Source: Candidatus Saccharimonadota bacterium (GTDB lineage: Bacteria; Patescibacteriota; Saccharimonadia; Saccharimonadales; Saccharimonadaceae). Taken from it: DNA of 51,492 nt. Position 1 is the stretch's first letter, and every line of letters begins with the position of its first letter. A program made the position numbers and the translations under genes. Location: NCBI GenBank assembly GCA_010014665.1, contig RZYF01000001.1, positions 1-51,492 on the forward strand, read 5' to 3'. Shown in pieces: positions 1,563 through 49,557 of this stretch. Below the pieces are notes generated by a model. That model saw nothing but the letters and a program-made list of their open reading frames with translations. It did no database searches and was not told the DNA's origin.

Positions 1563-2036
1563 TCATTTCCATTTTTGGCTGTTTTCGGCTAGTATTTTGC
1601 TCAATTCTACATAAATATCGCTAGCAACGTGATTAGATAACAGTTCGCTAATTTGCAAAGCTATATTATACGGCTTTGATTTTTCTATGTACTCTATTGT
1701 CAATTTTACATATCCGGTTTTTTTGTCTTTTTTTGCTTCACTGCCAAAAATTTCCTTTTTTATACGTGAAGCTATCGTTTTAAAGCTTGCCGCCATTTTT
1801 TCCCATATTTCGACGCCCTTTGTATCTCCGTATTCGTCTTTTAAGGCCGATACAAGCGCCTCACGTGTTTCAGCAATAAGCTCTTTAACTTCGTTTGCTT
1901 CTCCCGCACGGGCTATGTTTTCACGTAGTAAAACGGTCAATCCATCGGTTACACGTGAAAAACTTTCCGCTTCAGCAACAACTAAGCGTATTAGCCTTTT
2001 CCCTTTTTCTTTGTCGTATGTTTTTGAAAGTTCCAT
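1563..2036 (-). CDS. hypothetical alpha-helical protein (157 aa)
   Basis: ORF with AGAGGGTGA upstream of the ATG and a terminator downstream. Confidence 0.6.
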   Translation of the reverse strand: MELSKTYDKEKGKRLIRLVVAEAESFSRVTDGLTVLLRENIARAGEANEVKELIAETREALVSALKDEYGDTKGVEIWEKMAASFKTIASRIKKEIFGSEAKKDKKTGYVKLTIEYIEKSKPYNIALQISELLSNHVASDIYVELSKILAENSQKWK

Positions 2037-3109
2037 TATTCACCCTCTTTTCTGTTTGTTGTTATCGTTCAACATGCAATCTTGAGGCGTTGCGTTGCCC
2101 GCGGAAACTTCCCCGCTGATGATTAAAGTAGACCAAAAACAGCATGCATTGACAATAACAAAATTACAAATAACACAATTTAATTTAATGCATCCCAATT
2201 TACCACAATGGTGAGATAGGCATGCAGAATTAGCATTGCCTAACTTTCCCCAGTACCCACGCAACACCAATGTTTCCAGCACCATGCAGGCAATGACAAC
2301 CATCATCCATTGTCAACCTTAGCAACTTCCAGGGTTTACATTAGTCATTACCCTGTTCAACCAGCTTGATCATGTCACCAGTTGCCTTGCGTCTTGTTTG
2401 TTGCTACTACTTGTCACTGACTGCATTGCGCTTGCTATAGTGCAACACCAGTCTGCTATGCCAACCAAGCTGGAAAGAATAAGCATTCTTTTTTGCTGGA
2501 GAATCAAACGGCAACAGGAGAGACCGCGGTGGCCAAGCGCGACGGGCGGGGGGAGAAATGAATACTCGGCATACACATTTAGGTTTTCCCACTTTTGGCC
2601 ATGTTCTATATCGTGGGTAGTGATTCTCTAACTGAACGTGTAATTATGTTATTTTATATCAGGGCATAATAAGTCCCCCCTATGCAGGAGGGACAACTAT
2701 GAGGTAGTGGTGGAGTAGTAAAGGTGGGTATAGTTTGACGCCTTATTCATTATGGAGCAGGTCATTCTGTCTCTCCATCGGGCGTGTCCATATGACGGGG
2801 GTGTATGCGGTCTTAAGGTTAGCATACAAAGATATGTGTGTGACACATTCTTTCACGATCAGTGTTTTTTCAAGATGTCCTTAGGTGCTTTTTCTCGCTG
2901 TTGCCTCTTCTCTTTTTCAAGGCTCCGTCCCAAGGGCTACATCATCGACCAAGTAATGAAACTTGTTTGTTCGGCTATTAACCACCGAACGCCTGATAGA
3001 ACATCGTGTATGTGAAGTTCCCGATCAGATTATGGATTCCCTTAATCTGTGTGAGATATAGTATGATTGAGGTTAATTTGTCAATGGTAAAGTTAATGTG
3101 ATATACATT
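2037..3109 (-). other. ORF-free, GC-enriched region; candidate structured RNA or long leader (strand inferred from flanking genes)
   Basis: No credible ORF on either strand; the track ORFs here are short, Cys-rich nonsense. Hand G+C counts are 36/60 at 2521-2580 and 27/60 at 2281-2340, against 16/60 in the adjacent coding line 1681-1740. Several hairpins are present. Confidence 0.3.
3055..3084 (-). promoter_or_regulatory. sigma70-like promoter candidate pointing into the ORF-free region
   Basis: Minus strand reads TTGACA (3084..3079), then 15 nt, then TACTAT (3063..3058). An alternative -10 is TATATC with an 18-nt spacer. Confidence 0.3.
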
Positions 3110-3286
3110 TTATTCGTAATTCTTAATCCATTCCAAGTCTCGTCGTAGATTGTCAGCCACGACAGTCATTTGTCTTAGCAGTTGATTGTCTATTATAGAC
3201 GATGATAGCAGTGCTATGTGTCGTCGTTCAAGATCTTTGAACTTAGTTCTTAGCTGTTCAAGTTCATTCAACTCTCGCTTGTTCAT
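3110..3286 (-). CDS. small coiled-coil protein (58 aa; below the ORF-track cutoff)
   Basis: ATG at 3286 overlaps the TGA of ORF 3283..3750 (ATGA). My translation is MNKRELNELEQLRTKFKDLERRH...WIKNYE. Confidence 0.5.
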   Translation of the reverse strand: MNKRELNELEQLRTKFKDLERRHIALLSSSIIDNQLLRQMTVVADNLRRDLEWIKNYE

Positions 3287-3750
3287 AGTGGCAATATGTC
3301 CTCGTTGGAAATGTTAACCGTTGTAGCTTTTGCACGTTTGTCTGGGTGTTCTTGGTGCATATGTAGGTGGAATGTTTGAGTGGATGCAGGCTTCTTGGCT
3401 AAGAGCTTGGTGTGAATATCAGCAACCTTATTCAGAGCATTTACAAGCACATCTACGTCCTTTGCGGTTTCAACGTTGTCTGTCATATCTTCAAGTTTGG
3501 ATATGAGTTTCTTGAGTACGTCTGCTTGTGTTTTGATGATCTTGGATTCATCGGCGGCTATTTCACACCTTACCGCTTCCAGTTGAGCTTCGTTGTGCAT
3601 GATGATCATGCGTTCGCGCTCTTCCTTCCACTGATACGTGCTGACTAGATTCTGAATTGCCTCTTCGTCAACATTAGCTTTATCTGCTAGACATTTAACT
3701 GTAGCACCGTCCATGTACAGCTCTTTCAATTCTTTATTACTTATTAGCAT
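3283..3750 (-). CDS. HTH plus coiled-coil protein; the architecture resembles a small terminase subunit or a DNA-binding regulator
   Basis: N-terminus KELYMDGATVKCLADKANVDEEAIQNLVSTYQWKEER looks like a helix-turn-helix. The rest is helical. Divergent from the packaging operon. Confidence 0.55.
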   Translation of the reverse strand: MLISNKELKELYMDGATVKCLADKANVDEEAIQNLVSTYQWKEERERMIIMHNEAQLEAVRCEIAADESKIIKTQADVLKKLISKLEDMTDNVETAKDVDVLVNALNKVADIHTKLLAKKPASTQTFHLHMHQEHPDKRAKATTVNISNEDILPL

Positions 3751-3778
3751 GAAACACCTATTATTCTTTTATTATTTC

Positions 3779-3805
3779 TTGACAAACGTTTACAATGTAT
3801 AAATA
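3779..3805 (+). promoter_or_regulatory. sigma70-like promoter candidate for the late/packaging operon
   Basis: TTGACA at 3779-3784, with an A/T-rich -10-like TATAAATA at 3798-3805. The spacer is suboptimal (13-15 nt). Confidence 0.3.
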
Positions 3806-3847
3806 ACACTAGCTACAAGTCGTGTCAATAATAAACGAAAGGTCAAG

Positions 3848-4117: not shown

Positions 4118-5857
4118 ATGAAAGCATATGGTATTAACTGGCCTGATTCATTGTCCGAATTGGATATTGAGAAGTATTGTTATCGTCATCAAGACAAGAT
4201 AAAGGCAAATGGTGGCATTGTTAAAGGCCAGTATTACCATGCTGAAAAAGGGATGAAGATGATGTGGCCTCCAGACTTGCTTGATTGGCATTACTGGTGC
4301 TATGAGATGTTGGACTTGTGGGTTAAAAATAGGTTCATGATCGTGTGGGGCGCGGCGGCTACTGGTAAATCCAACTTCTTCGGAGCGTTGTGTAGTTGGC
4401 ACTATATGTGTGCGCCAAACAAAACTGGTATCTTTCTCACATCAACATCACTGGAATCATTACAAAACCGTATTTGGGAGTCTGTCGAGCGTTACATGAA
4501 CTATGCCATTAACAAGCATAAGGCTCCATTCGCAATGACACATCGACCATTGTTGGTAATGAACAAAGCAGATTTCAGAGGGGATGAAATTGATTACAAG
4601 AATACTAAAACTACTATTCATGGAATGGGTGTTTGTGGTGGCAATAGTAAACTTATTGGTGGTCATCTACCTTATATTGTCGTAGTGATGGATGAAATGC
4701 AGGAAACACCGCCAAGCGTGCTCTCCGATGCTCATAACTTATCCAAGGGTTGCCAAGAGTTCAAATTCTGCGGAATAGGGAATCCGCCAAACTGGTCAAA
4801 CATTCTAGTCACCAATGGCCTACCAGAGAGCGGGAAAGAAGTTCTAACACCCGATACTCATCGATGGAGAAATAAAAAAGGTGAAACAATCCATTTGAAT
4901 GGAATGAAATCACCAGCAATCATCGAGGACAATGGTGCCAAACGTTATCATTACCTTATCAAGCAGTCAGAAATAGAAAACGATTATCCTACAGCAGAAG
5001 ATAGACGCACGCTGGAATACTATCAGTATGTTCTTGGATGGCCTGCTCCGAGTGATATATCAAATACCATCTTGGATATGCCAACGATAATGATGCATAA
5101 TGCCAACCATCCAGCAGAATTTGAAGGACAAGTAGTTAAAGTGGCAGGACTCGACCCAGCATTCACATCTGGCGGTGATGCTTGCGCTTTATCAATTTGT
5201 TCCATTGGCAAACTTGCTAGTGGCAATGTGGCAATAGCTTTGGACGAAATGATTCGTGTTCCAATCGTGCTGGATAGTGATGATCCTGTTATATACCACA
5301 TCGTCAAGAAGGTTAAACTAGCATTAGATGCACATGGTGTTGAACTGGAAGATCTTGCAATAGATGATAGTGGCACTCAAAGTGTTGCCGATGTATTTGA
5401 TCGTGAGTATGGAGTAAAAACTCATCGTGTGAATTTTGGTGGTGCGGCAACAAATCGTTTGATAAGTGCTGATAAATCTGTAAAAGCTTCCGATCGTTAT
5501 AACAGCAAGGTGACAGAGTTGTGGTATGTCGTGCGTGATCTTGTTAAAAGCGGAAACGTGCGTGGATTACGCGGAGCATGTTGCGAACAATTCTGTATTC
5601 GAGAAGTAAAGAATACAGGACGAAAGAAACAGGTCGAATCTAAAGGTGATATGAAGTCCAGAACCAGCGGCAAATCTCCTGATGAAGCTGACAGTTTCGT
5701 ATGTGCTGTAGATTTGGCTAGAAGTAGGTATGGACTGATGCCATTTGGTAGTTCTGTAAACATTTTGAAGAATCTGTTTGACAATAAATCGTTTTCGCCT
5801 GTAAAACAATTATACAACTTGGCTAATAAGTATACAAGCGGAAGGATTATGCGGTGA
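4118..5857 (+). CDS. terL: terminase large subunit
   Basis: Walker A VWGAAATGKSN, Walker B-like YIVVVMDEMQE, and a C-terminal nuclease-like AGLDPAFTSGGDACAL. 579 aa, followed by a portal-sized gene. Confidence 0.9.
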   Translation: MKAYGINWPDSLSELDIEKYCYRHQDKIKANGGIVKGQYYHAEKGMKMMWPPDLLDWHYWCYEMLDLWVKNRFMIVWGAAATGKSNFFGALCSWHYMCAPNKTGIFLTSTSLESLQNRIWESVERYMNYAINKHKAPFAMTHRPLLVMNKADFRGDEIDYKNTKTTIHGMGVCGGNSKLIGGHLPYIVVVMDEMQETPPSVLSDAHNLSKGCQEFKFCGIGNPPNWSNILVTNGLPESGKEVLTPDTHRWRNKKGETIHLNGMKSPAIIEDNGAKRYHYLIKQSEIENDYPTAEDRRTLEYYQYVLGWPAPSDISNTILDMPTIMMHNANHPAEFEGQVVKVAGLDPAFTSGGDACALSICSIGKLASGNVAIALDEMIRVPIVLDSDDPVIYHIVKKVKLALDAHGVELEDLAIDDSGTQSVADVFDREYGVKTHRVNFGGAATNRLISADKSVKASDRYNSKVTELWYVVRDLVKSGNVRGLRGACCEQFCIREVKNTGRKKQVESKGDMKSRTSGKSPDEADSFVCAVDLARSRYGLMPFGSSVNILKNLFDNKSFSPVKQLYNLANKYTSGRIMR

Positions 5858-43554: not shown

Positions 43555-44046
43555 CTATCCTTTCTGTGATGTTGGCTTTCTATCAAATCCGTATTCATGT
43601 TTAGCATACTCGTACAACTTTTCAAACATTTCTGTGTTTAAATTTTCATCATTGAACTTGCAACTCATGCATATCAGATCCCATACCTCGTCGACAGCGT
43701 GTTGTTTGGCCGTTTCCGTGCACCTATCGTCAACTTCTAGTGCTTCGAAGTATAAAGTGTCGATGTCGGCACAGGATGCGTTGTAGGCATGTTTAAATGC
43801 CGTTCTCGTCGATTCGTCATTTTCCTTGGATTTCAGGTGGTTAAGGTATTCATAGTACACTTGGATCAATCGCATTCCAGATGGTGCATCGAAGGTTGAA
43901 TCATAGTACCATTCGATAGCATTGCACATGGTGCTGTCGCTAAATCCTTTGATACGGTTGCGAAGGTATGAATCAACAAAGTTGTAATCAATGTATGTAG
44001 TCCAGCACATGCCGTACATTCGTGCCCATAGTGGTCGTTCTTTCAT
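43555..44046 (-). CDS. hypothetical protein (163 aa)
   Basis: ORF in the operon. Confidence 0.55.
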   Translation of the reverse strand: MKERPLWARMYGMCWTTYIDYNFVDSYLRNRIKGFSDSTMCNAIEWYYDSTFDAPSGMRLIQVYYEYLNHLKSKENDESTRTAFKHAYNASCADIDTLYFEALEVDDRCTETAKQHAVDEVWDLICMSCKFNDENLNTEMFEKLYEYAKHEYGFDRKPTSQKG

Positions 44047-44777
44047 TTGTCCTCCTTGTTGGCAGTAATAGCATTTTCAATACGAGCCTTCGCAATGTTG
44101 AAGTAGTCAAGATCTTTCTCTATGCCGATGAAGTCTCTGTTTAGGTTTGCACAGGCAACTCCTGTCGTGCCACTGCCCATTGCAAAGTCTAAAACAGTCT
44201 CGCCTTCATTGGTGTAGGTCTTGATGAGGTACTCCATCAGGGCTACTGGCTTTTGGGTTGGGTGTACTCTTCCCGTTCTCTTGGCATTAGAAATCTCCAA
44301 AATAGACCTTGGATAATACACATTATTTATTACTTTTTCAGCACCAATTACATTAAAAGCATTGTCGCTGTTTTTTGTCTTACCATTCTTAATTCTTTCC
44401 TTCCCCCTAGTTTCCATCAAAGGATAATACTCTGTTTTCCCATCACCAAAAACTGCTATATCTTCATGCACACGATAAGGCTGATATTTTACCAACATTG
44501 AATTTCCCCCTAGCTTTTTATCCCGCACCCAGCAATACTTAAACATCTTCATGTTAGAAGCAATCAGCGTTGTCGTGAACGGCTGGCTTGCCGTCATAAC
44601 AATAGCACCATTAGGCTTAATAACCCGCTTCAACTGTTTCCACATCTGCTCTAGCGGAATGATGCTATCCCACTTGCATGCCGTTGTTCCGTATGGTGGA
44701 TCGGTAAGAACCATATCTACGCTTCCGTCTTCAATGTCCTTCATTGCAATTAAGCAATCATCGTTAATAAGTTTCAT
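44043..44777 (-). CDS. DNA methyltransferase, N6A/N4C (DPPY) family (244 aa; trimmed to the ATG at 44777)
   Basis: MVLTDPPYG (motif IV) precedes DFAMGSGTTGVA (motif I). The start is ATGA-coupled to the upstream 62-aa ORF. Confidence 0.85.
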   Translation of the reverse strand: MKLINDDCLIAMKDIEDGSVDMVLTDPPYGTTACKWDSIIPLEQMWKQLKRVIKPNGAIVMTASQPFTTTLIASNMKMFKYCWVRDKKLGGNSMLVKYQPYRVHEDIAVFGDGKTEYYPLMETRGKERIKNGKTKNSDNAFNVIGAEKVINNVYYPRSILEISNAKRTGRVHPTQKPVALMEYLIKTYTNEGETVLDFAMGSGTTGVACANLNRDFIGIEKDLDYFNIAKARIENAITANKEDK

Positions 44778-44965
44778 CAGTCCTCCTTGTCCACTGCTCG
44801 GTACTCGAAAAGCGGAACATTCTTTTGTTGTTTTGCGGTTAATGTTTTCAAAGCTTGGTCTCGGCATTGTGCGGTACTGTACTCTTTCCACTTGTGCCAG
44901 CTTCGCCAACGTAACGAGCGCACCCTGCTTGACGGTGATACCCGAATTTCAACTATGTGCTTCAT
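44777..44965 (-). CDS. small basic protein (62 aa)
   Basis: ATGA overlaps at both ends, with the organiser gene and with the methyltransferase. Confidence 0.45.
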   Translation of the reverse strand: MKHIVEIRVSPSSRVRSLRWRSWHKWKEYSTAQCRDQALKTLTAKQQKNVPLFEYRAVDKED

Positions 44966-45738
44966 ATCAGTCCTCGTTTCTGTTCGTTCATTTGTGCAAA
45001 TAGGTTTGTGATTTTGTCCTGCTGTGGTGGTTTGCGGATAGCAAGTCTTCGTTCAACTTCGCGCGTCTTGTCTTCCCATAATCTGTCTTTAGGGTTTATC
45101 ATTTTGTGGAATCCTGTTATGTAGCCACTGTCATAAACTTCTAGGTATTTAGGAATGAACTCGATGATAGCATTCTTATCTTCATCAGACAGCTTCTTCC
45201 AGTGACGATATGATTCGGCTTTTGTACCAATATAACCGTATGACTCCCACACACTCTCAAACTCGGCAGAGTATATATTATTGTTATTCTTTACCTTCTT
45301 TTCCTTCTCTTCTTTCTCTACCTTCTTATTTGTGTCCATCTCCGTTTCATCTCCGTTCCGTTTGCGTTTCATCTGCGTTTCATCTGCGTTTCGCACTTCG
45401 TTGTAAGTCTCGTAATTGCAAATAGTTATCCGTGTCATTTTCGCTTCACCTTTTAAACGTATCATGTTTCGTTTTTGAAACAAATCTAAAACACGCTTAA
45501 CCTTGCTTTTTGACCATCCCCAACGCGAAGCAAGTGTGACCATAGACATGCAGACTTGACCTCTTGCAACCCATACTTCTTCGCTTCCTAGAATCAATGG
45601 CTTATCGTCTTCTTTTACAACAGTCTTTGCAGTAGTAAGCAAATCGAGCCATGCTTCAAACTTAGAGAACTCGCGTCTTTCAGTCCAAAATTCATTTTGC
45701 TGATATTTGCGATATAATTTAATAAATCCTTTATCCAT
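44962..45738 (-). CDS. replisome organiser / DnaD-like replication initiation protein (258 aa)
   Basis: N-terminal winged-helix-type pattern GFIKLYRKYQQNEFW...VARGQVCMSMVTLASRWGWSKSKVKRVLDLFQK. Internal iteron-like repeats. Confidence 0.6.
   Translation of the reverse strand: MDKGFIKLYRKYQQNEFWTERREFSKFEAWLDLLTTAKTVVKEDDKPLILGSEEVWVARGQVCMSMVTLASRWGWSKSKVKRVLDLFQKRNMIRLKGEAKMTRITICNYETYNEVRNADETQMKRKRNGDETEMDTNKKVEKEEKEKKVKNNNNIYSAEFESVWESYGYIGTKAESYRHWKKLSDEDKNAIIEFIPKYLEVYDSGYITGFHKMINPKDRLWEDKTREVERRLAIRKPPQQDKITNLFAQMNEQKRGLI
45341..45395. repeat. five tandem 11-bp units (consensus tgcgtttcatc): iteron-like origin candidate inside the organiser gene
   Basis: tccgtttcatc / tccgttccgtt / tgcgtttcatc / tgcgtttcatc / tgcgtttcgca. 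An A/T-rich stretch lies about 45270-45300. Confidence 0.55.
45695..45738. repeat. left copy of a 44-bp exact direct repeat
   Basis: ttttgctgatatttgcgatataatttaataaatcctttatccat is identical to 49425-49468. Confidence 0.9.
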
Positions 45739-47017: not shown

Positions 47018-47117
47018 AGCACCCGACAGGATTCGAACCTGCACCATGTCATGATCATGAACAGTTTCTTCATGCCTAAAGAATATTACTGTACGTTTAC
47101 CATTCCGCCACGGGTGA
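47018..47117 (-). tRNA. tRNA-like gene, type II (Leu-like D arm, long variable region) with an aberrant 30-nt anticodon arm. Isotype undetermined.
   Basis: Minus strand: TCACCCG TG GCGG-AATGGTAA-ACGT A [CAGTAATATTCTTTAGGCATGAAGAAACTG] TTCATGATCATGACATGGT GCAGG-TTCGAAT-CCTGT CGGGTGC T. The T-loop GGTTCGAATCC is canonical. The D arm is close to E. coli tRNA-Leu TGGCGGAATTGGTAGACGC. There is a 1:72 T:C mismatch and no encoded CCA. Confidence 0.55.
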
Positions 47118-49117: not shown

Positions 49118-49513
49118 CTACTCTCCTAGTCTTTCGTTTATTTTTTCCAGTTCTGCTTCGAGTTGTTTCTTGCGTTCAACAAGTGCTTTGCTCTCGTCTT
49201 CGCTTGTTGGCATGTTGATGATCTTTCTGCATGTTGCAGGCTTTTTAAACGCCATTCCAACACCGTCAAATACTATTGATCCAATGTCTGTATGAATCCG
49301 ATATAGTCCAGTATTTTCTTGAAGGTTCGCCATCCATACTTCACAAACATATTCACCACATTTAATCACGGTTGTGTGTTCGCCACGCTTCAGCACTTCG
49401 AAATCATTATTCAACACGGACTCGTTTTGCTGATATTTGCGATATAATTTAATAAATCCTTTATCCATAGCGTATGCGTGTATACTCTCAATTACTTGCT
49501 GTAGTTCTTTCAT
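49118..49513 (-). CDS. hypothetical protein (131 aa) carrying an internal copy of the organiser N-terminus (MDKGFIKLYRKYQQNE)
   Basis: ATG at 49513 with a GAGGTGA SD. Residues 16-31 are encoded by the 44-bp repeat. Confidence 0.55.
   Translation of the reverse strand: MKELQQVIESIHAYAMDKGFIKLYRKYQQNESVLNNDFEVLKRGEHTTVIKCGEYVCEVWMANLQENTGLYRIHTDIGSIVFDGVGMAFKKPATCRKIINMPTSEDESKALVERKKQLEAELEKINERLGE
49425..49468. repeat. right copy of the 44-bp exact direct repeat
   Basis: Identical to 45695-45738, same orientation. Confidence 0.9.
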
Positions 49514-49557
49514 TATCACCTCATGCGGTTAACCTATACACCGCAAGGTTGTTTGAT

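Follow-up and report, generated by a model that had tools for sequence, protein, structure and literature searches.

Phages and prophages encode regulatory RNAs that have a promoter and an intrinsic terminator of their own, such as the CI RNA of P4 and the c4 RNA of P1 and P7 in early control regions; these are 70–180 nt long and have complementary target sites in the same transcript. The put RNA of HK022, with two stem-loops in about 70 nt, acts in cis in processive antitermination. RNA anti-CRISPRs (Racrs) are described as solitary repeat units that imitate CRISPR-array repeats (PMC10651486). Here we analyse a stretch of about 1.07 kb without open reading frames (ORFs), positions 2037–3109 of a metagenomic phage contig of 51,492 bp (41.1% G+C), the whole of which is called the window. 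We favour, at about even odds, the explanation that the stretch heads the leftward early operon as a functional non-coding locus made up of a structured-RNA gene (unit 1) and a leader (unit 2), back to back on the minus strand.

The absence of genes, claimed by an earlier sequence-only reading of the window, was borne out: the longest ORFs within the stretch have 88, 87, 77 and 68 amino acids (aa), and the ORFs inside it gave no match in Pfam or PHROGs. TAA, TAG and TGA codons are mixed in all six frames, so that recoding of a stop codon is ruled out as the explanation. Since the other stop-rich stretches (38.0–38.7 kb and 45.7–47.3 kb) are arrays of coupled ORFs of 60–85 aa, 2037–3109 is the sole truly gene-free kilobase of the genome. 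The start of the next minus-strand gene at 2036, the six hairpin strings and the hand counts of G+C (36/60, 27/60 and 16/60) given by that reading proved exact; the GC enrichment that it described is present but weak, with 43.2% in the stretch versus 41.1% in the window, 35.7% in the left flank and 40.6% in the right flank.

Searching with the proteins of the flanking genes brought up a single related phage, which we call relB (loci L006–L015, L017 and L018) and which was recovered in many assemblies of ENA, JGI and Logan samples. Its copies are identical over the stretch except for one single-nucleotide polymorphism, and the comparison comprises two distinct versions, that of the window and that of relB. 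Between the window and L006, the 155-aa gene upstream is 93.3% identical and the 157-aa gene downstream 75% identical. Positions 3084–2846 align to L006 without gaps at 97.9% identity, and relB then carries an insertion of 63 nt at 2846/2847 (63 gap columns in the pairwise alignment; in BLAST, 66 nt of relB opposite 3 nt of the window). From 2842 to 2108 the identity is 79.5% with 43 gap columns, and perfectly conserved and scrambled blocks alternate.

No similar DNA was found in GenBank phages or PLSDB plasmids, and no homologue of the stretch in IMG/VR or in GTDB genomes with three patterns each; protein-anchored searches of IMG/VR found no homologous locus, and one transition-tolerant pattern retrieved copies of relB alone from the JGI metagenomes. 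With nhmmer and blastn, no further copies were found elsewhere in the window or in distant relatives.

In relB, a gene caller placed an ORF of 135 aa in the stretch (L006 5022–5429). The same frame in the window has a stop at codon 12 plus indels of 1, 10 and 2 nt, and the substitutions fall on its three codon positions as 19:24:28, versus 2:1:28 in the adjacent real gene. Three-base periodicity of substitutions was absent from every ungapped block, in all frames and on both strands. The Pfam and PHROGs scans covered all long stop-free frames of the stretch and gave the relB ORF no family (best match E = 0.0037, below the family cut-off); tblastn of this ORF against 50,697 phage records gave no match, and phmmer of the window's longest open frame against 1.84 billion protein representatives returned the relB ORF as its sole match. 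A plus-strand ORF at 2752–3015 was rejected, since relB retains neither its start codon nor the first 31 residues.

The neutral rate was set from 4-fold degenerate sites in the flanking genes, where the two phages differ by 23–51% (155-aa gene, 0.233; terminase gene, 0.240; 157-aa gene, 0.512). Against this rate, we observed 1 change in 208 nt at 3054–2847 (P ~1e-23), none in the 54 nt of block c1 (2807–2754, P ~5e-7) and 4 in the 99 nt of block c4 (2615–2517, P ~1e-7). The conserved blocks are interrupted by segments at or above the neutral rate, and for this reason a single recent recombination cannot explain the pattern. Overall, the comparison of the two phages indicates that the stretch is non-coding, functional and strongly constrained, with a higher level of conservation than in the protein genes beside it.

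When pairs predicted from a single sequence were scored against relB over the whole region, they were broken equally on the minus and plus strands, and we therefore divided the region into two units. Judged from folding and alignment, only the promoter-proximal part of about 385 nt shows a fold excess and substitutions that preserve structure; it contains the following features.

3055–3084, minus strand: promoter P1, a consensus match with TTGACA (3084–3079), an 18-nt spacer and TATATC (3060–3055)
2665–3050, minus strand: unit 1, the candidate structured non-coding RNA, about 385 nt here and about 445 nt in relB
3026–3049, minus strand: hairpin H1, CAGAUUAAGGGAAUCCAUAAUCUG, where the 5' end of the RNA is predicted, invariant and present in all folds of both phages
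2847–3022, minus strand: multi-helix core with H2 (2969–2990), H3 and a long branched H4 with purine-rich loops, free of substitutions
2828–2853, minus strand: hairpin H5, AAAGAAUGUGU-CAC-ACACAUAUCUUU, from the folds, the alignment and the table of pairs
2803–2827, minus strand: hairpin H6, GUAUGC-13 nt-GCAUAC, with a C-G to G-C swap in relB and five changed loop positions
2754–2807, minus strand: block c1, 54 nt, invariant, including hairpin H7
2695–2753, minus strand: variable C-rich, G-poor tract, scrambled in relB and still C-rich there, corresponding to the C-free run of the plus strand
2665–2694, minus strand: terminator-like hairpin H8, GUCCCUCCUGCAUAGGGGGGAC, followed by UUAUUAUG, found in both phages by the terminator scan

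The TTGACA-type promoter candidate of the sequence-only reading (3084..3055, minus strand) is real as a consensus match and is conserved: relB has TTGACA-18-TATATT, which matches the consensus at 11 of 12 positions, and the four differences between the two phages all lie in the spacer or at the last base of the −10 hexamer. The predicted start of the unit 1 transcript coincides with hairpin H1. The C-free tract of 41 nt at 2698–2738 is real as well, but it is merely the second-longest such run in the window and is not kept in relB. With its conserved promoter and terminator-like hairpin, the stretch has the appearance of being transcribed on the minus strand.

The fold of 3050–2846 on the minus strand (205 nt) has a z of −3.29, with 0 of 200 shuffles as stable, versus −0.93 on the plus strand; for 3050–2660 (391 nt, minus strand) z is −3.67, again with no shuffle as stable. 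The relB copy of unit 1 reaches z = −3.57 and forms the same helices despite 44 substitutions and the insertion. Hairpins H1 to H8 are common to the independent folds of both phages, and the core helices recur when the window and relB are each folded on their own to minimum energy. In sliding folds of 150 nt on the minus strand, the mean z is −1.22 inside the stretch and −0.31 outside it, and this signal, specific to the minus strand, is concentrated at 2851–3075.

The differences between the two phages in H5, H6 and H8 comprise three double-compensatory and two G-U-preserving changes. The upper stem of H5 covaries, with U-A and G-C pairs in the window and G-C and U-A pairs in relB (two double changes), and the 63-nt insertion of relB is located in its apical loop; the two C/U changes on the 5' arm of H8 remain opposite G, so that pairing is retained on the minus strand only. 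Scored on the relB substitutions, the window structure has −35.9 kcal/mol, compared with −8.4 ± 8.4 kcal/mol for random placement (P < 0.0005) and −26.0 ± 3.8 kcal/mol for random bases at the same positions (P = 0.0055). The large structured RNA proposed by the sequence-only reading is partly supported: the stretch is non-coding and constrained, but the fold signal is limited to the promoter-proximal ~385 nt. On these data, unit 1 looks like a new folded non-coding RNA gene of about 385 nt, not a giant ornate one.

The remainder of the stretch has the following features.

2653–2661, minus strand: candidate extended −10 promoter, TGATATAAA in the window and TGATATAAT in relB, from alignment and pattern match, a pattern found at chance frequency in the window
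2108–2652, minus strand: unit 2, conserved non-coding stretch in which near-invariant blocks alternate with scrambled ones
2155–2127: second sigma-70 promoter, TTGTCA-17-TCTACT, a weak candidate whose hexamers are conserved and which lacks the key A at −11
2037–2107, minus strand: junction specific to the window by alignment with relB, with a small hairpin (2101–2116) and the ribosome-binding site AGAGGGUGA

No fold excess was found in unit 2: 2665–2150 folds at chance level on either strand (minus, z = −0.33; plus, z = −0.94), and on neither strand do the substitutions in the unit spare predicted pairs more than random substitutions would. The description of the stretch as hairpin-dense therefore holds for 3050–2660 on the minus strand and fails for 2665–2150. 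Unit 2 runs up to the ribosome-binding site of the 157-aa gene, and at the position of the junction relB has about four extra small genes instead. The leader proposed as an alternative in the sequence-only reading fits this distal half of the stretch, and we infer that unit 2 is probably the 5' leader of the downstream early genes.

In the model that we favour, host RNA polymerase would start at P1, and the transcript of unit 1 would open with the protective 5' hairpin H1, fold into the invariant multi-helix core followed by three variable hairpins, and end at the leaky H8, which resembles an intrinsic terminator. Unit 2 would be an untranslated leader transcribed by read-through, and perhaps also from the extended −10 promoter; it would carry the conserved blocks and feed the variable cassette of small early genes downstream. 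Our guess is that the RNA of unit 1 works in trans at an early stage of infection and probably does so by binding a protein.

Several observations weigh against this model. The promoter and the terminator are known as consensus matches; in the window, the last base of the −10 hexamer is a C (TATATC) and there is no over-representation of TTGACA-type matches, and the U-tract of H8 is weak. In the structure test, the plus-strand control was partly positive too (P = 0.014). The covariation concerns five pairs, and because the data searched contain only two distinct sequences its support is thin and the case provisional; the best-conserved 208 nt offer no variation for the structure test. Recent gene conversion could explain part of the identity over these 208 nt, and several patchwise conversions are formally possible. 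Unit 2 lacks a structural signal, and its part as a leader is inferred.

The setting of the locus is given by its neighbours. Plus-strand genes run from 3848 on, beginning with the large terminase gene, and diverge at 3751–3847 from a minus-strand set in which the genes named by PHROGs (Erf, SSB, an exonuclease, a DnaD/O-like loader, a methyltransferase, dUTPase, DnaB and a sliding clamp) have early or replication functions. The ORF-free stretch belongs to this leftward set. No terminal overlap between the ends of the 51,492-bp contig was found.

3283–3750, minus strand: gene of the 155-aa protein, DNA-binding family phrog_4151, upstream of the stretch
3110–3286, minus strand: ORF of 58 aa, upstream of the stretch and absent from relB
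1563–2036, minus strand: gene of 157 aa, function unassigned, the first gene downstream, with homologues 78% and 63% identical
1513–1536: strong terminator after the 157-aa gene, from the terminator scan

Beyond the position of window 2108, relB has 1.3 kb of small genes (about four) with no counterpart in the window, and the set differs between L006 (5694–7033, with ORFs of 76, 128, 55 and 106 aa) and L008 (3664–5003, with 98, 133, 66 and 106 aa). No family matches were found for the small cassette ORFs flanking the stretch in L006, L008 and the window (58-aa ORF). The conserved stretch thus sits in an accessory-gene hot spot of the early operon, with swappable cassettes of small ORFs on both sides.

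Gene content also differs upstream of the 155-aa gene, where relB has an inserted gene for an N6/N4 DNA methyltransferase of 189 aa (L006 3611–4180); the window has none at this place and carries a related methyltransferase at 44043–44909. Seven relB contigs (L007, L009–L013 and L017) end inside the stretch, at L006 coordinates of about 4894, 5039 and 5308–5373, and the independent assemblies break at the borders of conserved and variable blocks. Such repeated breaks point to the presence of more than one variant in each of these samples. Samples that yielded contigs of the locus and in which contigs break inside it are SRR8327730, SRR8327731, SRR5007144, ERZ795053, ERZ27257486 and JGI 3300009778, 3300025847 and 3300010349. 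Two contigs, L003 and L004, represent the closest relative by terminase (46% identity). Their ends are at most 60 nt apart and lie just past a gene distantly homologous to the 155-aa gene (E = 6e-7, 23% identity), which is where the non-coding stretch would start; their final 60 nt are C-rich and G-poor.

Two further observations were made elsewhere in the window. A direct repeat of 47 nt, 98% identical between its copies at 45692–45738 and 49422–49468, forms the 5' ends of two genes, that of the DnaD-like loader (44962–45738) and a 133-aa ORF (49118–49519). At 47018–47117 (minus strand) there is a tRNA-like element that scores 32.4 bits in Rfam versus a gathering score of 29, with a fold z of −2.0; its acceptor, D and T arms are good, about 44 nt stand in place of the anticodon arm, and ARAGORN called no tRNA there. 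No tRNA or tmRNA genes were found.

This element was the sole match when the whole window was searched with the covariance models of Rfam 15 at the gathering score, and it lies outside the stretch. At E ≤ 10, positions 1900–3300 and 2640–3090 and the relB copy gave chance-level matches to eukaryotic small nucleolar and long non-coding RNAs, far below the gathering score, and six related loci gave nothing. Membership in a known family (GOLLD, ROOL, group I/II introns, ribozymes, riboswitches, 6S, pRNA or c4) was accordingly rejected for lack of an Rfam 15 match, and the GOLLD- or ROOL-type ornate RNA of 1 kb, a kind mentioned in the sequence-only reading, is not supported.

The main rival, which we regard as possible though rather unlikely, is a cis-acting regulatory leader, in which the P1 transcript runs into the early genes and its 5' domain controls read-through at H8. 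Control could be by attenuation or by processive antitermination, as with the put RNAs of HK022 or nut sites, the domain acting on the polymerase or on a phage factor. The anatomy is the same as in the favoured model, and the two are not separable at the sequence level. A structured domain just after an early-type promoter, before a weak terminator and among genes of the same strand, fits such a leader; so does H8, whose 3' arm and tail are invariant and whose 5' arm is variable, and so does the downstream cassette, which differs between otherwise identical relatives as expected under a shared control region. However, we found no convincing antiterminator pairing with the arms of H8 on reading the sequence, the 200–385 nt concerned far exceed the known put and nut elements, and the candidate extended −10 promoter right after H8 would render read-through unnecessary.

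Less likely than the cis-acting leader are a single large RNA and an element that acts as DNA. The former, which we consider doubtful, would be one RNA of 0.9–1 kb across both units, a new ornate RNA on the scale of GOLLD and ROOL. Conserved blocks occur throughout the whole kilobase, the full-length minus-strand fold has z = −2.45 versus −0.99 on the plus strand, and the weak U-tract of H8 makes read-through plausible. Yet unit 2 by itself folds at chance, with its predicted pairs broken as often as at random on both strands; the full-length relB fold reaches merely z = −1.62, and Rfam gave no match. The sole complementarity found between the units, a long-range pairing of the single-stranded 5' segment of unit 1 with block c4, was rejected as not significant (P = 0.27). 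It is similarly improbable that such an early RNA of 0.9–1 kb forms the fixed head of the hot spot, its invariant blocks binding host or phage proteins for takeover or anti-defence; if so, the RNA would found a new class among the large non-coding RNAs of phages.

We attach an equally low probability to a DNA-level element. It could serve in replication, as an origin or a single-strand initiation signal, in packaging, or as a conserved recombination anchor beside swappable gene cassettes. The cassettes do differ on both flanks (the 58-aa gene in the window only, about four genes in relB only), several relB assemblies break inside the stretch, and the terminase genes are about 0.75–2 kb away (3848 versus 3109–2037). 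A distant terminase relative, L021 (JGI 3300050208, Ga0502765_0001070), has a gene-free gap of 1.1 kb in its early gene array (2134–3219), which looks like a replication origin: its fold z is −11, and it contains three CCTACAAAAATGTAACAA-like repeats and an AT-rich core that lies between the arms of an inverted repeat of about 35 bp. This gap, however, shows no sequence similarity to the window stretch, where no tandem repeats or iterons were found; the repeats there are short, two-copy and at chance level, among them one imperfect pair of 15 nt at 2154–2183. The replication cis-element of the sequence-only reading was rejected in its iteron-type form for this lack of repeats. The gene of the DnaD/O-like initiator is distant (44962–45738), excess folding and compensation by G-U pairs are both specific to one strand, and the layout of promoter plus terminator fits a transcript.

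Finally, the decay of one or more protein genes, the last proposal of the sequence-only reading, is nearly excluded and in our estimate very improbable: the 135-aa ORF of relB is intact, and the window keeps the last ~85 codons of it open, with the stop at the same place, but this frame has no codon-position bias and its indels are not multiples of three, the Pfam, PHROGs, tblastn and phmmer searches gave nothing but this spurious ORF itself, and decay is incompatible with conservation above the neutral expectation.

Taken together, our results support a functional non-coding locus with a structured-RNA gene and a leader, which is a real, mid-sized and probably new phage non-coding RNA locus and is in no curated family. 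Phage non-coding RNAs are much less charted than phage proteins, and the predicted anatomy of unit 1 is clear: a promoter, a 5' hairpin, an invariant core, an expandable hairpin tip and a terminator. The candidate RNA is more conserved than the adjoining terminase gene. A hot spot of swapped small early genes may be a place to seek host-takeover or anti-defence functions, and unit 1, if expressed, would represent an orphan RNA family and an early-infection factor for an uncultured phage lineage. The locus bears on no long-standing open question.

Compared with the described systems, the candidate shares with the phi29 pRNA (RF00044) that it is phage-encoded, structured and near packaging genes; it differs in having no Rfam match and in that the window phage has a conventional large terminase. 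Like the Racrs and other phage non-coding RNAs of early accessory loci (PMC10651486), it is a small non-coding gene beside variable accessory genes of a phage, although general repeat scans found no repeat unit in the stretch. With GOLLD (RF01998) and ROOL (RF03087) it has in common a phage-borne ORF-free stretch of several hundred nucleotides conserved above its surroundings; unlike them, it matches no covariance model, and only about 385 nt are structured, the other 0.5 kb having no fold or covariation signal. At about 385 nt, and with no significant internal or genome-wide complementarity found, unit 1 departs from the P4 CI and c4 RNAs, which it resembles in being non-coding, in lying in an early or immunity-proximal control region on the strand of the early operon, and in its order of promoter, stem-loops and terminator-like end. 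The likeness to the put RNA of HK022, which is drawn by description, is that unit 1 is structured and lies in an early operon, directly after the early promoter and before the terminators.

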